A stretch of 64,000 bases of DNA from a virus: the IMG/VR virus record IMGVR_UViG_3300020180_000016, positions 1 to 64,000 of that record; one strand, given 5' to 3'. The notes under the pieces were generated by a model. It made no database searches and was not told where the DNA came from. It saw only the letters and a list, made by a program, of their open reading frames with translations. The position numbers and the translations under genes are program-made. Below, one piece after another: positions 5,676 through 57,670 of this stretch (positions are counted from its first letter, which is position 1; each line of letters starts with the position of its first letter).

Positions 5676-6207
5676 CATCAAACAGTCGTATGAGGGGGAG
5701 GGTGATTGGCTAGGCATCCGTACTCTCTTTCTGACGTGCCCTGGATTGGAGGAGGCACCTATTGGTGCCTACCGGCACCTTGAGGCCTTGTATATTACAG
5801 TGGATGACAAGGTGGACTTCGACCAAATCATCTCTTACGTCTTCGATTTTTATCGACAGACGACGATCGAGGTGTTTCAGGAATTTTGCCCCTTAGATAA
5901 TTTTTTGAAGTTGCTTGAATCTGAGTTGACGAAGACGTCTCGCTTGATTCGATTCTTTTACTCGGTCGACACCTATTTTCCACTCCGTGAATTTCCGGGT
6001 TTTGTGAAAGTCCGGGTTACGAAGCCAGCAGAGATGTTTCCGCGTTTGAAGGTGGCCAACGATTTTGCCTTCGACGGACATCAAGTCTTGCTCATGCCGG
6101 AATACGGTGGGCCTGACGTAGGTCAGCACATGATGGAAATCTTCGGTTACGTTCAATCCGGCGTCCGTGTGATGCCTCCAGTTCACCATCTTTTGGGAAT
6201 TGATTGA
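5659..6207 (+). CDS. Degenerate QueE-like paralogue lacking the radical-SAM CxxxCxxC motif
   Basis: SYEGEGDWLGIRTLF and VRVMPPVHHLLGI mirror QueE termini (SIQGEG..G.P..F / RL..Q.HK..G). Confidence 0.55.
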   Translation: MFGFRNIKQSYEGEGDWLGIRTLFLTCPGLEEAPIGAYRHLEALYITVDDKVDFDQIISYVFDFYRQTTIEVFQEFCPLDNFLKLLESELTKTSRLIRFFYSVDTYFPLREFPGFVKVRVTKPAEMFPRLKVANDFAFDGHQVLLMPEYGGPDVGQHMMEIFGYVQSGVRVMPPVHHLLGID

Positions 6208-7280: not shown

Positions 7281-7733
7281 GTGCTGCACCGATTGAAACG
7301 ACGGATAGAATTCGATGCCGGCCACCGTGTCTTAGGTCACGGCGGTAAGTGCCGCCATCTTCATGGTCACAGATATGTCTGTTGGATTGAATGCGAGTGT
7401 GAGGTGTTGAACGACCTAGGAATGGTCGTCGACTTCGCAGACGTGAAAAGAATCGTAGGTGGCTGGGTTGATGGCAATCTTGACCACAACATGATTTTAC
7501 ATCCGGAAGATCCGTTGTTGGCAGAGGGCATCAATCCAGAGAGCTTGCAGAGTATCTTCGGGTGTCGACTACCGTTCATCATGCCAGCTTCTCGACCCAA
7601 TCCGACAGCAGAGAACATCGCAGCCGTCGTATTTGATAAGGCGTCGCAATTGCTTGGCGGTGCTGGGCTGTGGGTAGTTTCCGTCGAGGTTTTTGAGACA
7701 CCGAATTGCTCAGCTACACATTTCAAACAATAG
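7281..7733 (+). CDS. queD: 6-carboxytetrahydropterin synthase
   Basis: FDAGHR..CRHLHGHRY, GMVVDF, LDH, NPTAENIA, VFETP. Confidence 0.95.
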   Translation: MLHRLKRRIEFDAGHRVLGHGGKCRHLHGHRYVCWIECECEVLNDLGMVVDFADVKRIVGGWVDGNLDHNMILHPEDPLLAEGINPESLQSIFGCRLPFIMPASRPNPTAENIAAVVFDKASQLLGGAGLWVVSVEVFETPNCSATHFKQ

Positions 7734-17546: not shown

Positions 17547-17618
17547 AGAGTGGTCGTCGATTAGGTAAGACACCGAGCCGCGATCTCGGAGAAATGGGTT
17601 CAAGTCCCATCCACTCTC
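17547..17618 (+). tRNA. tRNA-like gene, anticodon GCG (Arg), C at position 33, no encoded CCA
   Basis: Acceptor AGAGTGG/CCACTCT; D arm GTC/GAC with GG; anticodon stem CCGAG/CTCGG, loop CCGCGAT; T arm ATGGG-TTCAAGT-CCCAT. Confidence 0.75.
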
Positions 17619-27783: not shown

Positions 27784-27966
27784 GTGGGTTCGTATAGTTT
27801 CACAGCCGTTGTAGTAGGTTTGCCGGCTAAATGCCGGCATTTCCATAGAGATTAATCTGCGAAAACGGTAAGAATGTGGTCGAATAGTACCAAAACACCA
27901 AAAGCGCCCTAGGACCAAATGTGCTTTTGGTGGTGAATTTAGGCTTTTACCAGAATGAGGCCAAGC

Positions 27967-28410
27967 ATGATTAATAAGCCATTTGAATTGCGAGTCGAAG
28001 CGAACGGCAATGGAGACTACGGACTCGCCCTGTTCCGCGTCCCGGCCCGAGGGGAAACCGCCAACGGGGAACACTCGGAATTGCAACTGGTAATCCGCGT
28101 TCATGGGACTCCCATGCGGGCGGTGATGGACCAGGTTCTCGGAACCATCAAGCAGGCCGGTTATCGGTCGTCTGATCTTGCCCGCAACCGAAAGGCTCCG
28201 TTTCAGCTCCCCGAAGAACCAGGCGTTCGACTGGGCCTTTTGCTCATGGCGGTCAAGCCGTTGCGTAAATCGTCGCGGATGACAGACATCTCTGAGCAGG
28301 TTCAGTCGATGGCCGACGAGGAAGCGTACTATTGGTTCAGCAAGATGACAGATCACCGCGTCGGGCAGCGGTCGCAGAAAGCCATGCGGATTCTGCTGGC
28401 CTGCGAATAA
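27967..28410 (+). CDS. Small conserved protein of DUF499/DUF1156-type defence loci (apparently intact)
   Basis: EEPGVRLGLLLMAVKPLRK..MADEEAYYWFSK motif recalled from such loci; DUF1156 fragment nearby. Confidence 0.55.
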   Translation: MINKPFELRVEANGNGDYGLALFRVPARGETANGEHSELQLVIRVHGTPMRAVMDQVLGTIKQAGYRSSDLARNRKAPFQLPEEPGVRLGLLLMAVKPLRKSSRMTDISEQVQSMADEEAYYWFSKMTDHRVGQRSQKAMRILLACE

Positions 28411-28432
28411 GGCCAGCGAAAGGAGAATCCCG

Positions 28433-28507
28433 ATGGCCGAAGGCAGTCGGGTCCGAGACCCCGTTCACAACTTCATCGATCTGACCGAGAAAGAAGGAGG
28501 AACATGA
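28433..28507 (+). pseudogene. HD-domain (YwfO/dNTPase-like) gene reduced to 24 codons by in-frame deletion
   Basis: SD AAGGAG; MAEGSRVRDPVHNFIDLTEKE-GGT*; RDPVH..I is the family N-terminus; ATGA coupling to the next gene retained. Confidence 0.7.
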
Positions 28508-29040
28508 TGGATGCCCGCGATTTCGTGGCGATGACGCTCCTGGCGTCCGGTGGCCATGTGCAAGGCAAAACGAAGCTTCAGAAGCTCGTGTATTTTGTGG
28601 GCGTCCTGACGGACTCTCTCGAGGAGTTGGGCTACCGCCCGCATTTCTACGGGCCGTACTCGGATGACGTGGCGTATGCAATTACGCAACTCAAGGCGAT
28701 TGGTGCGCTCGACCAAGTGGTCTCGGAATGGGGCTACCACTTTACGCTGAACGACCCCGGCAAGGCATACGCCGCCGGCGTTTCGCAGCGTTGTTCAGAC
28801 CTCTGGCGGCGAGTGCAGAAGGCTGTCCAAGCATACAACGAAGCGGGCGACAAGGACTACATGGCATTGTCGATTGCTGCGAAGACCTACTTCCTGTTGG
28901 GCCATAAGAAGGCTCCGGCAACCGATGAGGAACTGACGCAACTGGCATCGCAATTCGGTTGGACCGTCTCGGTCGACCAGGTACGGCAAGCTGCGGAATA
29001 TCTGTCCCGGCTTCACCTGATCGAGCCCTCAACAAACTGA
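28504..29040 (+). CDS. YwgA-like / Panacea(SocA)-related wHTH protein, putative antitoxin
   Basis: GKTKLQKLVYF, YRPHFYGPYSDDV; lies downstream of the HD remnant as in ywfO-ywgA. Confidence 0.7.
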   Translation: MMDARDFVAMTLLASGGHVQGKTKLQKLVYFVGVLTDSLEELGYRPHFYGPYSDDVAYAITQLKAIGALDQVVSEWGYHFTLNDPGKAYAAGVSQRCSDLWRRVQKAVQAYNEAGDKDYMALSIAAKTYFLLGHKKAPATDEELTQLASQFGWTVSVDQVRQAAEYLSRLHLIEPSTN

Positions 29041-29065
29041 TCTCTGTCGAAAGCGATGCCTTCTT

Positions 29066-29488
29066 ATGTCCCGTCCCCGTGTACTCATCGAACAGTGGCT
29101 CCCCATTGACCAGATCGGGGCCGAGTGCATGCGCGAGCGGGGGGCGTCTTCGGCGTTGCCCCCGCTGTATTTTCTGCACGTCTGGTGGGCGCGGCGGCCG
29201 CTCACGGTCAGTCGCGCGGCGATTCTGGCCAGTCTGCTGCCGGCTTATCCGACTGGCGACGACGACAGCGTCCGGGCCTGGCCGCAGAAGTTTCTCAAGC
29301 GGTTTCCGACGTTCGACGCCTACAAGCAGTGGTTTCTGAAGCTGATCGGCATTCAGGGGAACCCGGCCACCAGCCGAAAAATTATCGACTGGGCCAAGAC
29401 CCAGGGGCTCAAGCTGACGCCGGCGTCGCACTGGCGCTCGTGCCGGAGATCAAGGTGGTGCCCATCAGCGGGGCCGCTAAATGGCTGA
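29066..29488 (+). pseudogene. DUF1156 adenine DNA methyltransferase, N-terminal fragment
   Basis: LIEQWLP..RER..LHVWWARRPL..SRAAILASLLP; homology lost at about 29415. Confidence 0.8.
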
Positions 29489-29606
29489 CACCCGAAAAGG
29501 CGATGATTGGACTGAATCTGCGAGGGAAGAGCAACGACCGCTTCTGGTTCACGTTCTTCCACGAGGCGGGACACATTCTCAACGACCGCAAGAAAGAGAC
29601 GTTCAC
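29413..29606 (+). pseudogene. ImmA/IrrE-type metallopeptidase domain fragment (HigA-fused family)
   Basis: AGVALALVPE..SGAAKWL..LNLRGKSNDRFWFTFFHEAGHIL (HExxH). Confidence 0.75.
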
Positions 29607-29619
29607 GGAGTCGACAAAA

Positions 29620-30426
29620 ATGAATGATTTGCAGCAGGACTCTGATGCGAAGAACGATAGTCCGCTGATGATTGCGGCAAAGTTCGGCCGGCTGTTCGTG
29701 GGGGTCAACGTCATGTTGATTCCTGATCGGGACCGTGCCGGTGAAGATGTCGCACAGCATTCCGGGCGCGTCCTGCGCGGGATTGCGAAGTCGATCCGCA
29801 TCGCAGTGCTGCCCGGTGAATTCAAAGAGAGTAACGGCGAGGACGTTCGAGACGTTCTCCGGCGGCCGGACGGGCAGCAGCAGGTCGAGCAAGCCATCGC
29901 TGACGCCCAACCAACCGAGCCGATCGAGAATGACGCGGCTGAGAAGGAGACGGTGCCACACACCCCGGTCGGCGATGTCTCAGAATCCGTAACCGCCAAA
30001 GAGATTGAGAAGCCTGTTCGGCCGGATATCCAGAAGCTCCGGATTGCGGAATTGGAAGGTCGGCGGGATGCCTTGCAGCAGCATCTTAAGAATGCACAGA
30101 ACGCTGTCGACGAGGCGAAGAAGGAAGATGCGGACAGATGCTGGGGTTTGGGCAAACCGCCAACCCCAGCATCTCTTGAGACGGTGCAGCATGGCGGCAG
30201 GCATTACAAAGGTATGGCAATCCAACCGGCCGAGTATTGCCATAAGAACGGATTCAAATTTTGTGAGTCGGAGGCGATCAAATATCTGTCACGGTTTCGT
30301 AGTAAGAAGGGCGAGGAAGACGTCCGCAAGGCGATTCACTTCTGCCAGATGATTCTGGACATGGAGTACAGTGTCCAGTCGAATGTGATCTACCCGGAGA
30401 CTAAATCATCGAAGAGCCCGACTTGA
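29620..30426 (+). CDS. Chimeric ORF: gene-start fragment + Toprim fragment + coiled-coil pieces + phage DUF3310 domain
   Basis: GGAG before ATG 29620; IPDRDRAGE..EDVRD (Toprim-like); HGGRHY..IQP.EY..AIKYLSR..KKGEEDVRKA (DUF3310). Confidence 0.6.
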   Translation: MNDLQQDSDAKNDSPLMIAAKFGRLFVGVNVMLIPDRDRAGEDVAQHSGRVLRGIAKSIRIAVLPGEFKESNGEDVRDVLRRPDGQQQVEQAIADAQPTEPIENDAAEKETVPHTPVGDVSESVTAKEIEKPVRPDIQKLRIAELEGRRDALQQHLKNAQNAVDEAKKEDADRCWGLGKPPTPASLETVQHGGRHYKGMAIQPAEYCHKNGFKFCESEAIKYLSRFRSKKGEEDVRKAIHFCQMILDMEYSVQSNVIYPETKSSKSPT

Positions 30427-31918: not shown

Positions 31919-31928
31919 TATAACTCCA

Positions 31929-32315: not shown

Positions 32316-32645
32316 GGCTGAGTGATGCCATGATACCTGAGCGACTCGCGGAAATGGATGAGGTGGACAACTGTAAAGCCCGAGGTGACTGGATTACGGA
32401 AATCGCCATCCTCGAGCTTGTGGCAGAAGTGAAGCGGCTGCAAGATCTGATTAAGAAATTTCAGGATCGACGAGTCGAAATCTAAATGTACCTTTTCACC
32501 GTCGAGTACCTAGTCGCTCAAGAGCGCCGGATGTCGGAAGTTGAGGTGACCGACACCAACGACGAGAAAGAAGCTCGATTGGTGGTGTTGAGGCATTACA
32601 TCTCGCGAAAGATTCGAGTCGTTGCTATTCGTCGAGGAGGGTTTG

Positions 32646-34253
32646 ATGACGGGGCCTAGGAAAGCTACCAGGGTCGATCTTGTCAAAGAAGAAGGTCGGG
32701 TCAGGAAAGCCTACCAGAAGATGAGTGCGACCTCTTTCGAGGTATTTTATCGTGGTTTGACAATCGAGTCTGCCACAGGTCCGCGAGTCTTTGAAACCTG
32801 CTCTGCCGATTTCCAGAAAGAGTTCTTTGAGGACGTGGGGCCATCTTTACTCGCCGTTCAGTTAGGGATTCTACCTCCACGAAGACGGTTCTGGCTCGAG
32901 CGGACGAAGAAGTCCTCTAAGGATGCTGACTTAGCCATTATTATGATGTGGCTGATAGCATTTCCACAGAGGCCGCTCTATCTTCAGGTCGGTGCTGCCA
33001 ATCGTGTGCAGGCGGCTATCGTCAAAGACCGAATGACCCATCTACTTCACTGGAATCCTTGGTTAACTGAACACGTCGAAATTGTTCAGTGGGAGGTCCG
33101 TAGTAAGAAGAAAAATCAAGCCGGATCCCATATGGCGCTTTTGCACATCATGAGCTCGGACATTTCTGGTGCTCATGGTGGTATCCCTGATGTTCTGATC
33201 GTCAACGAATTAAGCCACGTAGATAAATGGGAGTTTGTTGAGAATTTGATGGACAATGCGGACGGCGTGGCTCAGGGAATCGTCATCATAGCCACCAATG
33301 CCGGGTTTGTCGGGACGAAGGCTGAGGTGTGGCGCCTGAATGCAATGAAATCACCGCAGTGGTGCTTTCATATGCTGGCTCGACCAGCTCCGTGGCACAG
33401 CAAAGAAACAGTCCTTGAGGCTGAGCAGAGAAATACATCCAGATCACGGTTCAGACGTCTGTGGCACGGCGAGTGGCAGACCGATAAAGGTGATGCTCTT
33501 AATCAGACTTTGATCGAGCGAGCTTTCACCCTCTCAGGGCCAGCCGGTAAGGCTGATCCGACCTGGGATTATATCATGGGCTTGGATCTCGGCATTACCC
33601 ATGACCATTGTGGGTTGGTGTGCATTGGCGTTAATCAGACACTCCGCAAAATCAGATTAGCCTATATGGAAGGTTTTGCCCCAAACGGGGGCGAGGTGTT
33701 CCTTCCAGATGTGGAAAAGGCTTGTGACCGGATTGCTAAGATCTTTCGGCCGTTATGTCTGATCTATGATCCGCACCAAGCTATTCTTATGGCTCAGCAA
33801 CTCCGAGGGAAAGGAATCCCGACCAGGCAGATGGTATTCAGTAGTCCAGGTAATCTGGGACGAATGGCGTCTAGTCTCGTACAATGTTTTGAGCACAACC
33901 TGATCGAGCTCTACGATGAAGATGATCGATTAAAGAGGGACTTGAATAAGTTCAGCATCGTCGAAAAGCAATATGGTCTCAAGCTCGAGGCTACTCGAGA
34001 TGAATACGGACATGCTGACGTCGGCACAGCCTTAGTGATAACTCTTCCGGCTGCTATTGATCTCCTGGAAGGCTTATGGAATCCAGAGTTTGATGGCGAT
34101 TTGATTGCTGTCGAGACTGAGGACTTGACCAAGGAAGAGATCGCAGAGCTACCCGACCATTTCCGTGATTTGTTCGACATGGAAGATGGTGTGAAGAAAG
34201 AACGGCAGATCGAACAAGGTTGGGACGACAGCCCGTTTAAGGATTTGACATAA
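32646..34253 (+). CDS. terL: Terminase large subunit
   Basis: AANRVQA, deviant Walker B LIVNE, coupling motif ATNAG, RRLWHGEW, RNase H-like GLDLG..D, YDPHQ, HAD. Confidence 0.85.
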   Translation: MTGPRKATRVDLVKEEGRVRKAYQKMSATSFEVFYRGLTIESATGPRVFETCSADFQKEFFEDVGPSLLAVQLGILPPRRRFWLERTKKSSKDADLAIIMMWLIAFPQRPLYLQVGAANRVQAAIVKDRMTHLLHWNPWLTEHVEIVQWEVRSKKKNQAGSHMALLHIMSSDISGAHGGIPDVLIVNELSHVDKWEFVENLMDNADGVAQGIVIIATNAGFVGTKAEVWRLNAMKSPQWCFHMLARPAPWHSKETVLEAEQRNTSRSRFRRLWHGEWQTDKGDALNQTLIERAFTLSGPAGKADPTWDYIMGLDLGITHDHCGLVCIGVNQTLRKIRLAYMEGFAPNGGEVFLPDVEKACDRIAKIFRPLCLIYDPHQAILMAQQLRGKGIPTRQMVFSSPGNLGRMASSLVQCFEHNLIELYDEDDRLKRDLNKFSIVEKQYGLKLEATRDEYGHADVGTALVITLPAAIDLLEGLWNPEFDGDLIAVETEDLTKEEIAELPDHFRDLFDMEDGVKKERQIEQGWDDSPFKDLT

Positions 34254-34331
34254 TGAGGGCTACCACCGGGGAATCGAGCACCTCTAAATTTGAGCACTCG
34301 GATGTGCTGATGGCGACCATCGAGCACTTGT

Positions 34332-34482
34332 GTGGTCAGTCCGTTGATGCCGAAAGGCGTTGAGCACGAAGTAATTCCGATCAGAAGCTACGCGGTCGGG
34401 AGACATTCGTCCGTTGATGCCGAAAGGCGTTGAGCACGAAGTAATTCCGATCAGAAGCTACGCGGTCGGGAGACATTCGTCC
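34332..34482 (+). CRISPR. Cas-less CRISPR mini-array, Myxococcus/cyanobacterial type I-B-like repeat, two identical 34-nt spacers
   Basis: R1 GTGGTCAGTCCGTTGATGCCGAAAGGCGTTGAGCAC (34332-34367); spacer 34368-34401; R2 34402-34437 (5' 7 nt diverged); same spacer 34438-34471; R3 stub 34472-34482. Confidence 0.85.
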
Positions 34483-34574
34483 TAGGCATTAAACTGAAGC
34501 TCTAACTCAAATCAATTTTAGGTGTTGCTAATCTCCCAACAAGGCCGCTACCATACACCCACCGTTCTAGGTGG

Positions 34575-35036
34575 GTGCGTTCATTTAAACATAGCGGTTC
34601 CCCCTCTCCACCGCGTAGACCTGTGAGGGAGACTTCGTTGTTCGATGGGATCGAGGCCGTGCATCGGATCAGGCTCAACTATGACCTGGTTGGAGCTCTT
34701 GTATCTTTGATGTTCTTGGATATCGTTTCGGGTGTTCTTCTTGCGGTGTTGATGAAGAAGGTGAGCTCGCCAGTCTGTCGAAAGGGTATGTCGGTCAAGG
34801 CCGGTATCTTTCTTCTCATTTGTGTGGCGGCTATTATCGAGCCTTATGCAAATGGATTGCCAGCCGTTCAAGTCTGTGCCATCTTCTATATCGGCTCTGA
34901 GTCGATATCCATTCTAGAGAAGTTGCAAAGAATTGGGGTTCCCATTCCTAAAGTCTTTGTCGAATCTCTCGTGGAAATGAAGGACAGAATGAACGTATTC
35001 ACTAAGGGGAAGAAAGATGAAACTGCAGACGAGTAG
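34575..35036 (+). CDS. Phage holin (family 4 type); start may be further downstream
   Basis: FLDIVSGVL..SS..KGM..K, ESISILEKL..IGVPIP; multiple TM helices. Confidence 0.8.
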   Translation: MRSFKHSGSPSPPRRPVRETSLFDGIEAVHRIRLNYDLVGALVSLMFLDIVSGVLLAVLMKKVSSPVCRKGMSVKAGIFLLICVAAIIEPYANGLPAVQVCAIFYIGSESISILEKLQRIGVPIPKVFVESLVEMKDRMNVFTKGKKDETADE

Positions 35037-35481
35037 CTCCTTGCAGGCCGGGTGTCTCATCTTCTGTGTCACGCTTATGATTGGGTTCGCTCAATTTGTG
35101 ATCGCGGGTAATCTCCCTTTCTTGTGGTACCCTGCTCCGGATTGGGTTCAGAACCCGGCTTTTAAGATCAAGGCTACACCCAAGGTCAGAGTCTACGTCT
35201 ACGGAGATTTCTCATCCGGTAAGTCACTCCTTTCGACACGGCTGCGAAAGGAGTGGATTGATCTCACCCCGTCACAGACGACGGCTTTACCCTATGAATT
35301 TGTCTTTGAAGAGGATATCCCTACGTGGGCGAGGACTGTACCATTGCTGCACTGGCAAGACAAATCAGGTGAATGGCATCAATGGGACTGGGCTGCAAAA
35401 CAGATCACCACCCCAACTCTCAGACAAAATTTCGATGAAGTGTACCAAGCCACAGAGCGGTACGTTGCAGTTGCTAAGTAA
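35017..35481 (+). CDS. Membrane-anchored/secreted hypothetical protein
   Basis: N-terminal hydrophobic segment. Confidence 0.55.
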   Translation: MKLQTSSSLQAGCLIFCVTLMIGFAQFVIAGNLPFLWYPAPDWVQNPAFKIKATPKVRVYVYGDFSSGKSLLSTRLRKEWIDLTPSQTTALPYEFVFEEDIPTWARTVPLLHWQDKSGEWHQWDWAAKQITTPTLRQNFDEVYQATERYVAVAK

Positions 35482-35499
35482 TTTGATAAGGAGAAGAAG

Positions 35500-56881: not shown

Positions 56882-57670
56882 ATGACTCGTTCGCTGTCGA
56901 ATGCAAAGGTCAGTCTGGCGTTGACTGGGACGGTCCGAAATGCGATGACGTTCAACACGTCTCGCGTCGCTTCTGGGGCTATCAGTCACACCGTCGATAC
57001 GTCGTTGTCGGATGGAGTTTCTTCCGGAGAAGCGAATCGGGCTTGGGAGTACAAGGCAGAGCTGGCCAGCGGAGCGAGTGAGACAATTGACCTGTCTACC
57101 ATGACCGGCATCAATCTTGGTGCTGGTGATGGCAACGACATCGTCGGCCAGACCATGAATCCGATTGCTGAAATTGTAGCCATTGTCGTCAGCAACGAAA
57201 ACGCTAGAACGGTGGCTGGCTACCTTGAAGTTGAACCTGGTGCTGCTAATGGGTGGGCTGGTTTGGGTACCCATACGGTAGCGACAACAGGTGCCTTGGG
57301 TGGACAAGGCACCTTGTTTAAACAGCAGCCCGGTGACCCAGGCTTTGTGCTGGACGCGACGCATAAGAATCTCAAACTGACCGCAAGTGGTGGCGATCTC
57401 ACATACAAGATCACATTATTTGGTCGACATGATGAGGATGAGAGTTCTTCGAGTAGTGTGTCATCAAGCTCGTCAAGTCCGTCATCGCAATCCAGTTCGT
57501 CCTCGAGTTCGTCGAGCTCGCTGTCCTCTTCGTCAAGCTCGTCAAGTAGTGTGTCATCAAGCTCGTCAAGTAGTTCATCATCAAGCTCGTCAAGTAGTTC
57601 ATCATCAAGCTCGTCAAGTAGTTCATCGCCAAGCTCGTCAAGTAGTTCATCGTCTAGCTCTACCAGTTAA
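56882..57670 (+). CDS. Virion protein with C-terminal poly-Ser tail
   Basis: Beta-rich domain followed by a Ser-dominated tract of about 75 residues. Confidence 0.75.
   Translation: MTRSLSNAKVSLALTGTVRNAMTFNTSRVASGAISHTVDTSLSDGVSSGEANRAWEYKAELASGASETIDLSTMTGINLGAGDGNDIVGQTMNPIAEIVAIVVSNENARTVAGYLEVEPGAANGWAGLGTHTVATTGALGGQGTLFKQQPGDPGFVLDATHKNLKLTASGGDLTYKITLFGRHDEDESSSSSVSSSSSSPSSQSSSSSSSSSSLSSSSSSSSSVSSSSSSSSSSSSSSSSSSSSSSSSSPSSSSSSSSSSTS
57534..57646 (+). repeat. 24-bp tandem repeat (5 copies) inside the poly-Ser tract
   Basis: CAAGCTCGTCAAGTAGT at 57534, 57558, 57582, 57606, 57630. Confidence 0.85.

Follow-up and report, generated by a model that had tools for sequence, protein, structure and literature searches.

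The gap between the large terminase and holin-like genes of a phage holds a CRISPR repeat that was very probably inserted at a PAM-flanked protospacer; on the evidence of aligned alleles, we take the repeat-less (empty) allele found in near-identical sibling phages to be ancestral. We see an even chance that the element is a one-repeat CRISPR cassette, made by capture of host array DNA at the targeted site. The cassette could also act today as a guide against those siblings, a function predicted from sequence that we would put at somewhat under even.

The 64,000 nucleotides analysed here (the window) make up the start of a virus record of 81.7 kb in IMG/VR (IMGVR_UViG_3300020180_000016), which is linear and has an estimated completeness of 87%. 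The record is a phage, probably a virulent one, and the repeat locus lies among its late genes; no integrase or resolvase was found in the record. The element occupies the 426-nt gap between the large terminase gene (terL, 32622..34253, + strand; phrog_9 and phrog_2 terminase large subunit), its upstream neighbour, and a holin-like gene (34575..35036, + strand; phrog_199 holin, E 3.5e-13), its downstream neighbour, whose true start is probably near 34639-34680. All 345 TerL homologues come from uncultured sources, and a 99% identical TerL is encoded by a 5.1-kb ENA contig (P0001).

Layout of the repeat element

Tandem Repeats Finder reports a period of 70 nt at 34339-34482, with 2.1 copies and 100% matches, and an exact repeat search gives the two 70-nt copies as 34339-34408 and 34409-34478. 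The 25-nt repeat core occurs twice in the window, against 0.00 expected from 100 shuffles. Read along the + strand, the element starts with R1 (34332..34367), a full 36-nt repeat of the type I-MYXAN family that begins with GTGGTCAGTCCG, ends with GAGCAC, matches Rfam CRISPR-DR33 and contains a hairpin and the handle TTGAGCAC. The spacer position after it is taken by the first copy of S1 (34368..34401), which is native phage DNA, identical to the protospacer of the empty allele. R2 (34402..34437) is a chimeric repeat, composed of 7 nt of native sequence (GACATTC) and the duplicated 3' 29 nt of R1, in which hairpin and handle are intact. The second copy of S1 (34438..34471) is the original place of the native sequence, as judged from the exact 70-nt copies and the allele alignment, and 11 nt of further native DNA, the ‘stub’ GACATTCGTCC (34472..34482), complete the element. 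The hairpins of R1 and R2 are both present in the centroid fold.

The first-pass annotation had described this order of repeat, spacer, repeat, same spacer and stub, and the layout is borne out by the exact copies. Its ‘5'-diverged second repeat’ has a simpler origin: R2 arose when 70 nt were simply duplicated in tandem, with two GTCC tetramers as the microhomology. In run X1, which may be the source sample of the record's assembly, the unit has about twice the depth of its flanks (96 versus 42-45) and a unitig over the copy junction (34383-34438) has single depth (48.9); the duplication is thus real and not an assembly artefact.

In the three-allele alignment, the inserted DNA is a 75-nt fragment (34293..34367, + strand) consisting of AGCAC, which is a repeat end, a 34-nt segment that we call S0, and the full R1. 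S0 (34298..34331, + strand) lies between a junction octamer TTGAGCAC (34290-34297) and R1 and is absent from the empty allele; it is presumed to be a host spacer that was carried along. It forms a hairpin of its own, a self-complementarity unusual for a spacer. The TTGAGCAC octamer recurs in exact 70-nt register, at 34290, 34360 and 34430. Three extra GAGCAC motifs are found upstream (34274-34327): the one at 34276 is native and shared with the empty allele, the one at 34292 is the left junction of the insert, and the one at 34322 is inside S0, where it closes a 10-bp hairpin.

The element is not a CRISPR array in the usual sense. Instead of several repeats with different spacers, it has one true repeat, and both ‘spacers’ are the same native DNA. 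The 78 nt upstream are unlike the leader of the Pirellula array described below, and neither of the two cas families searched (cas6_cmx6 and cas7/DevR) is present in the whole 81.7-kb record, in keeping with the initial description of the element as phage-borne and cas-less.

Other features of the gap may be relevant to expression. A sigma-70-like promoter match (ACGACA-18-CATAAT, 34225..34254, + strand) is weak: this single 9/12 match, compared with 1.3 expected from shuffles, is at chance level and is not evidence of function. A terminator-like GC hairpin (34556..34577, + strand) is located downstream of the cassette, and in the empty sibling its stem is conserved and the loop alone varies. 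The gap also includes a possible small ORF (34253..34363, + strand), an uncertain feature seen by translation and coupled to terL by a TAATG overlap. The ORF is 37 codons long in the empty allele; in the filled allele a TGA within TTGAGCAC stops it after 36 codons and the C-terminus is different. The net insertion of 69 nt stays in frame. No homologues of this ORF were found, including next to terL in relatives.

Some further observations concern the window more generally. The 3' half of S1 (34388-34402) is complementary at 13 of 15 positions to 34604-34618, just upstream of the likely ribosome-binding site of the holin gene; the pair flanks the terminator-like hairpin and may be a native RNA structure or chance. 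One tRNA gene was detected in the window (17547-17618; Rfam, 54.6 bits), and additional tandem repeats are present at 1-147 (15/45-nt period), 1439-1576 (45-nt) and 57533-57660 (24-nt).

Sibling alleles and the insertion junction

An exact scan of JGI metagenome contigs with S1 returned two siblings, L156 and L157, each ~99% identical to the window over kilobases. Together with the window they form an allele series of zero (L156), one (L157) and two (window) repeats. L157 contains one 70-nt unit (R1, S1 and stub) and no downstream repeat. In L156, the repeat is absent and the sequence reads ...CTCTAAATTTGGGCATG|GAAGTAATTCC..., continuing through S1 and the stub into the common downstream sequence. 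Because they are contiguous in this repeat-less sibling, S1 and the stub are native phage DNA. The element had been interpreted as holding an acquired foreign spacer followed by a partial repeat, and neither part of that interpretation survives the comparison. The stub is identical to the 5' end of R1 at 6 of 11 positions, four of which are the GTCC used in the duplication. The siblings differ from the window elsewhere as well. In L156, 46 nt replace 2.2 kb at 27820-30041, a region that the first-pass annotation read as captured host defence genes; ~200 extra nt are present near 31920, and 277 nt at 35208-35484 are missing.

In Logan contigs, the empty allele is found in runs X2 and X4 (freshwater) and the filled allele in X1 and X3 (microbial mat) as well as in X2. 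Run X2 carries the zero- and one-copy alleles together on the same SNP background, and the two-copy allele is at full depth in X1. The filled allele is present in several studies and on two SNP backgrounds, the empty allele having been seen on one; this distribution needs either recombination or an older insertion with later loss. Among the sequencing runs listed as holding the locus, none is an RNA run.

The position of the junction is central to our interpretation. The empty allele reads ...TTTGGGC-ATG-GAAGTAATTCC..., with ATG at -3..-1 of S1, and the empty and filled alleles become homologous again at precisely the base that follows R1. In the filled allele, the 75-nt fragment replaces GGCATG, so that the last base of the repeat abuts the first base of S1 and the ATG is gone; both of the carrier's own copies of S1 are preceded by the repeat end CAC. 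L156, along with contigs of X2 and X4, contains a 34/34 match to S1 preceded by ATG, the PAM being taken from Leptospira.

The relevance of ATG comes from a relative of the repeat. Subtype I-B arrays of Leptospira interrogans have the same repeat 3' half (CTGAATATAACTTTGATGCCGTTAGGCGTTGAGCAC); ATG is at -3..-1 in 37 of 53 of their predicted protospacers, an in-silico PAM; and the arrays are transcribed in the ...GAGCAC sense and cut by LinCas6 into 71-nt crRNAs (PMC9372919). For Leptospira, ATG is likewise given by Vink et al. 2021, according to whom all genomes of a type I repeat cluster share one PAM (PMC8482600). Use of ATG as the PAM in this analysis is a transfer from another phylum by way of repeat-family identity. 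Protospacers for the Planctomycete, myxobacterial and cyanobacterial arrays were sought in GenBank phages, in the viral loci examined and as self-targets, and none were found. ATG has a frequency of 0.017 in the phage genome, and for an array fragment cut at random, ~1 of 70 phases would put its end on the final base of the repeat; the joint chance is ~2.5e-4.

The direction of the change can be judged from the same junction. The empty-allele sequence TTTGGGCATGG differs from the product of a simple deletion, TTTGAGCACG, by three changes in 9-10 nt, whereas the flanks differ by ~1%. This mismatch favours insertion, and the empty allele is therefore taken as ancestral. The opposite direction would apply if the locus were a decayed but genuine mini-array of the form R0-S0-R1-S1-R2, acquired long ago, with S1 a foreign spacer, the stub a truncated repeat and the repeat-less sibling a deletion derivative. 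Such a history would account for the upstream TTGAGCAC in exact 70-nt register, the shared 34-nt length of S0 and S1, the partial likeness of the stub to the start of R1 and the two SNP backgrounds of the filled allele compared with one for the empty allele. We consider it very unlikely, since in the empty allele S1 is contiguous with its flank and has ATG before it rather than a repeat end. Further, deletion between the TTGAGCAC octamers would leave TTGAGCAC, but the empty allele has TTGGGCATG; the stretch at 34262-34297 is repeat-like in the octamer only, and the stub is without the invariant GTG start of the repeat family.

Insertion does not by itself imply a present function. The fragment may be a scar that entered the genome as a copy when CRISPR damage was repaired, or through illegitimate recombination, with loss of the PAM as the sole past benefit and the duplication as neutral slippage. 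The junction and the PAM logic explain the origin of the element with no later function; the polymorphism of zero, one and two copies resembles neutral indels, of which the lineage has others relative to the sibling (such as the 2.2 kb absent from L156); and the duplication used a microhomology of only 4 nt. This account leaves to chance that the 70-nt period exactly restores a full unit of repeat, guide and hairpin. It also fits less well with the full depth of the two-copy allele in X1, with a filled allele that recurs in several studies on two SNP backgrounds, and with an independent group of cyanobacterial proviruses in which a unit with promoter and terminator has been duplicated (L169 as compared with L165 and L171). 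We regard a scar as an improbable full explanation.

Repeat family, hosts and related elements

The repeat belongs to a genuine CRISPR family, as the earlier reading had proposed. On the + strand it matches Rfam CRISPR-DR33 with 30.5 bits (E 7e-5), a score below the gathering score of 39, and the mirror family DR23 matches the - strand. When species-representative genomes are scanned with GATGCCGNNAGGCGTTGAGCAC, at least 120 loci are obtained, mostly arrays with a 70-74-nt period; array-bearing phyla among the matches listed include Myxococcota, Cyanobacteria, Planctomycetota, Acidobacteriota and others. Upstream of the arrays, on the same strand, are cas4-cas1_MYXAN, cas5/Cmx5/DevS, cas7/DevR and Cas8a1/Cmx1. 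The first-pass assignment to a Myxococcus/cyanobacterial I-B family thus agrees with the cas genes that adjoin the repeat, which are of type I-MYXAN or I-B-like in Myxococcus, cyanobacteria and Planctomycetes.

The closest host arrays are those of Pirellula. R1 is identical to Pirellula repeats at 32 of 36 positions and throughout the 3' 28 nt, which answers the suggestion that the repeat be matched to host arrays. In a Lake Erken Pirellula MAG (G001), an operon of cas6/cmx6-cas3-cas8a1-cas7-cas5-cas4/cas1 precedes an array in the same orientation, the repeat of which has exactly the same 3' 28 nt as the phage repeat. The repeat core is present in 10 of 251 genomes of this MAG's family. In array repeats of the Pirellula family, the first 8-9 nt vary freely except for an invariant GTG start; R1 (GTGGTCAG...) conforms to this, unlike R2 (GACATTCG...). 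In run X3 there are also 31-mers at high depth in which the bare repeat core has different flanks, as would be expected of host arrays in X3.

Searches for the donor and for matching spacers were negative within their scope. None of ~1,700 host spacers from arrays (1597, 101 and 14) matches the phage. A donor array with S0-repeat-S1 was not found; S0 has no match in 401 genomes of the Pirellula order and does not occur elsewhere in the phage, in IMG/VR or in the viral and host loci examined. S1 matches nothing else in the phage; exact matches in IMG/VR and meaningful matches in GenBank phages are likewise absent and, with up to 3 mismatches allowed, none occurs in 5 Pirellula-type genomes or the 401 genomes of the order. 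Near terL, the repeat is absent from 30 of 30 relatives, and it is absent anywhere in the whole records of the five closest; its acquisition therefore appears recent.

With a host-matched repeat in a viral gap, a decoy has to be considered. A transcribed solitary repeat of the Racr type would bind host Cas6/Cmx6 and Cascade subunits non-productively and so lower immunity, and duplication would double the dose. In formal terms, L157 holds a viral solitary repeat unit: its one intergenic repeat retains the hairpin and is of a subtype that matches the host. Many solitary repeat units act as Racrs, with inhibition that depends on dose, and a non-targeting crRNA competes too (Camara-Wilpert et al. 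2023, PMC10651486). Transcription of the L157 repeat would likewise be expected to compete for Cas6/Cascade, and lone or few repeats of the type I-MYXAN family are also carried by other viral contigs. A decoy, unlike the element described here, has no need of a repeat joined precisely to a PAM-flanked protospacer, and does not predict a repeat end placed exactly where the PAM was replaced. Moreover, PHROGs recognised none of the ten neighbouring genes searched as an anti-CRISPR gene, the search for promoters gave no strong one (the single upstream 9/12 match is at shuffle level), and the element is dispensable in co-occurring siblings. A decoy role is, in our estimation, unlikely. In the two-repeat allele of the window, the units are no more than 100 bp apart, and the rules of SRUFinder would make them an ‘array’ (PMC10651486); the part of the SRU tables of that paper that was covered has no repeat of the type I-MYXAN family.

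A viral crRNA-like regulator (Cracr) would have its spacer pair in part with a host cas or toxin promoter, which Cascade would then silence. Such viral mini-arrays are known from types I-B, I-C, I-E, I-F and V-A (bioRxiv 10.1101/2024.10.29.618823). In the 18.9-kb type I-MYXAN locus of G001, however, S1 and S0 have only chance-level matches of 10-11 nt; none is PAM-proximal, at least 9 PAM-proximal bases being the threshold used, and none is near a cas promoter. The partial match to a host cas promoter that had been envisaged was accordingly not found, and S1 is native phage DNA. We give this explanation almost no credence.

Repeats of the same family were seen in several other settings. A viral lone repeat in L160 (positions 6113-6189; IMGVR_UViG_3300045925_000242) has the same 19 nt (CGTTCGCTACTCTTTGCTA) on both sides, and the upstream copy is preceded by GGCATG, again with ATG; no repeat-less form of this locus was found in IMG/VR. 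In L170 (~340-430; IMGVR_UViG_3300036841_000114), the 19 nt upstream of a lone repeat begin with the same 14 nt (one mismatch) as the post-repeat sequence; this upstream copy shares bases with a promoter-like -10 box, and the triplet before it is TTA rather than ATG. Four AT-rich UViGs from isolate genomes, probably cyanobacterial proviruses (L165, L171, L159 and L169), have compact units in the order sigma-70-like promoter, repeat, self-complementary spacer of ~40 nt, repeat cut right after the hairpin, and terminator. L169 has two such units with similar spacers and looks like an older duplication. L168 (5540-5720) has three repeats spaced 25 and 20 nt apart and then a terminator, a geometry that resembles crRNA-like regulators with short spacers, and the viral contig pair L004 and L005 has a 3-repeat array with a fourth full repeat ~290 nt further on. 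Orphan units of one or two repeats, far from cas genes, are also present in Pirellula/Planctomycetaceae MAGs (L032 at 7400-7520, L091, L181 and L087); the unit of L032 sits in a defence island with DUF499 and MADS genes, and cas6_cmx6 had no match in the two MAGs checked, which hold L032 and L091.

Proposed origin, possible guide function and meaning

The capture of host array DNA could have proceeded as follows. A Pirellula-like host with a type I-MYXAN system would have held a spacer against S1 and attacked the phage, and the attacked DNA would have been repaired or recombined on the host array as template, by way of spacer-protospacer homology. The copied tract would have comprised R1, the neighbouring S0 and 5 nt of the next repeat, rejoined to phage DNA at a TTG microhomology. 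With the PAM lost, the S1 of the carrier would resemble a spacer in an array and would escape targeting. There are documented cases in which phages and CRISPR loci recombine through spacer-protospacer homology (Varble et al. 2019, as cited in PMC8616872), and spacers of leaderless phage mini-arrays match adjacent genes of close relatives, with recombination with host arrays as the suggested source (Medvedeva et al. 2019, PMC6858448). Against this origin stand the donor array and the host spacers against the phage, not found in the arrays and genomes searched, and the unusual self-complementarity of S0.

For a guide function, host Cas6/Cmx6 would cut transcripts within the repeat to give a crRNA with the TTGAGCAC handle and S1, which could be loaded into host Cascade and directed against co-infecting siblings that retain ATG and S1. 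The later 70-nt duplication would have placed a second Cas6 hairpin behind S1, and a canonical crRNA of ~70 nt (8-nt handle, 34-nt guide and 28-nt 3' tag) can then be made; the prediction for the window allele is 70 nt, compared with 71 nt in Leptospira (PMC9372919). Against the guide, the promoter match is at chance level, and for a locus among the late genes of a probably virulent phage the benefit of a guide made so late is unclear. In addition, the one-copy allele has no 3' Cas6 site. The earlier idea of a guide for inter-phage competition gains a concrete target, the 34/34 protospacer with its ATG flank in siblings, and loses the notion that the guide was acquired as foreign DNA.

Comparison with known systems helps to place the cassette. 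Virus-borne mini-CRISPR arrays (Faure et al. 2019; Medvedeva et al. 2019, PMC6858448) are likewise cas-less, consist of one or two units and have host-type repeats; as appears from the sequences here too, their guides match a very close relative and spare the carrier, and host Cas proteins would be needed. In contrast to these arrays, the cassette would take its guide from DNA native to the carrier and still joined to its original flank, rather than from a spacer acquired as a separate repeat-flanked unit. A single true repeat was imported, the second being a tandem-duplication chimera; the site itself, in its unoccupied form, would be the target; and there is no recognisable leader. With type I-MYXAN systems and subtype I-B of Leptospira (Rfam CRISPR-DR33/DR23; PMC9372919), the cassette shares the repeat 3' half TTGATGCCGnnAGGCGTTGAGCAC, the hairpin, the orientation and a unit of ~70 nt, but not cas genes, a leader or diverse spacers; it is a parasite of such systems and not a member. 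The recombination of Varble et al. 2019 (cited in PMC8616872) similarly joins phage and array DNA through spacer-target homology; there, transducing particles with CRISPR loci are formed, whereas the 75-nt patch stays in a viable phage genome and its event is deduced from the alleles.

The cassette can also be compared, as a functional analogy, with homing endonuclease genes and synthetic CRISPR gene drives: the insert destroys its own recognition site and would direct cleavage of the empty site in relatives. The differences are that it encodes no protein, would borrow a host nuclease, and is at most proposed to convert the empty allele. As a protein-free homing or drive element, the repeat at the PAM-protospacer boundary would turn host Cascade-Cas3 on co-infecting genomes with the empty site, which would then acquire the repeat through recombinational repair templated by the occupied allele. 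Such conversion would have left its footprints in the two SNP backgrounds of the filled allele and in the joint presence of both alleles in X2. Cas3 degrades processively and makes no clean break. Homing of this kind is in our judgement a rather unlikely extension of the guide function.

Viral solitary repeats are currently viewed as RNA decoys, and viral mini-arrays as acquired weapons; we know of no established origin for either. Both are known kinds of element. This locus differs in its candidate guide, which is the phage's own contiguous DNA, in its putative target, which is the unoccupied allele, and in the preservation of three stages: near-identical phages carry the empty site, one repeat or two units, with a junction exactly at the PAM. 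The literature searched contains no report of such elements for the type I-MYXAN family with Pirellula-like Planctomycete hosts, and the locus links a phage group that has no cultured member to hosts of this kind. The series offers a concrete origin, in which array DNA is copied in at a targeted protospacer, and shows how duplication alone could turn a lone repeat into an array-like unit. It also leads to the prediction that one insertion both protects its carrier and arms it against kin. If the homing interpretation were true, many viral ‘solitary repeats’ would be one-guide selfish elements and not decoys.
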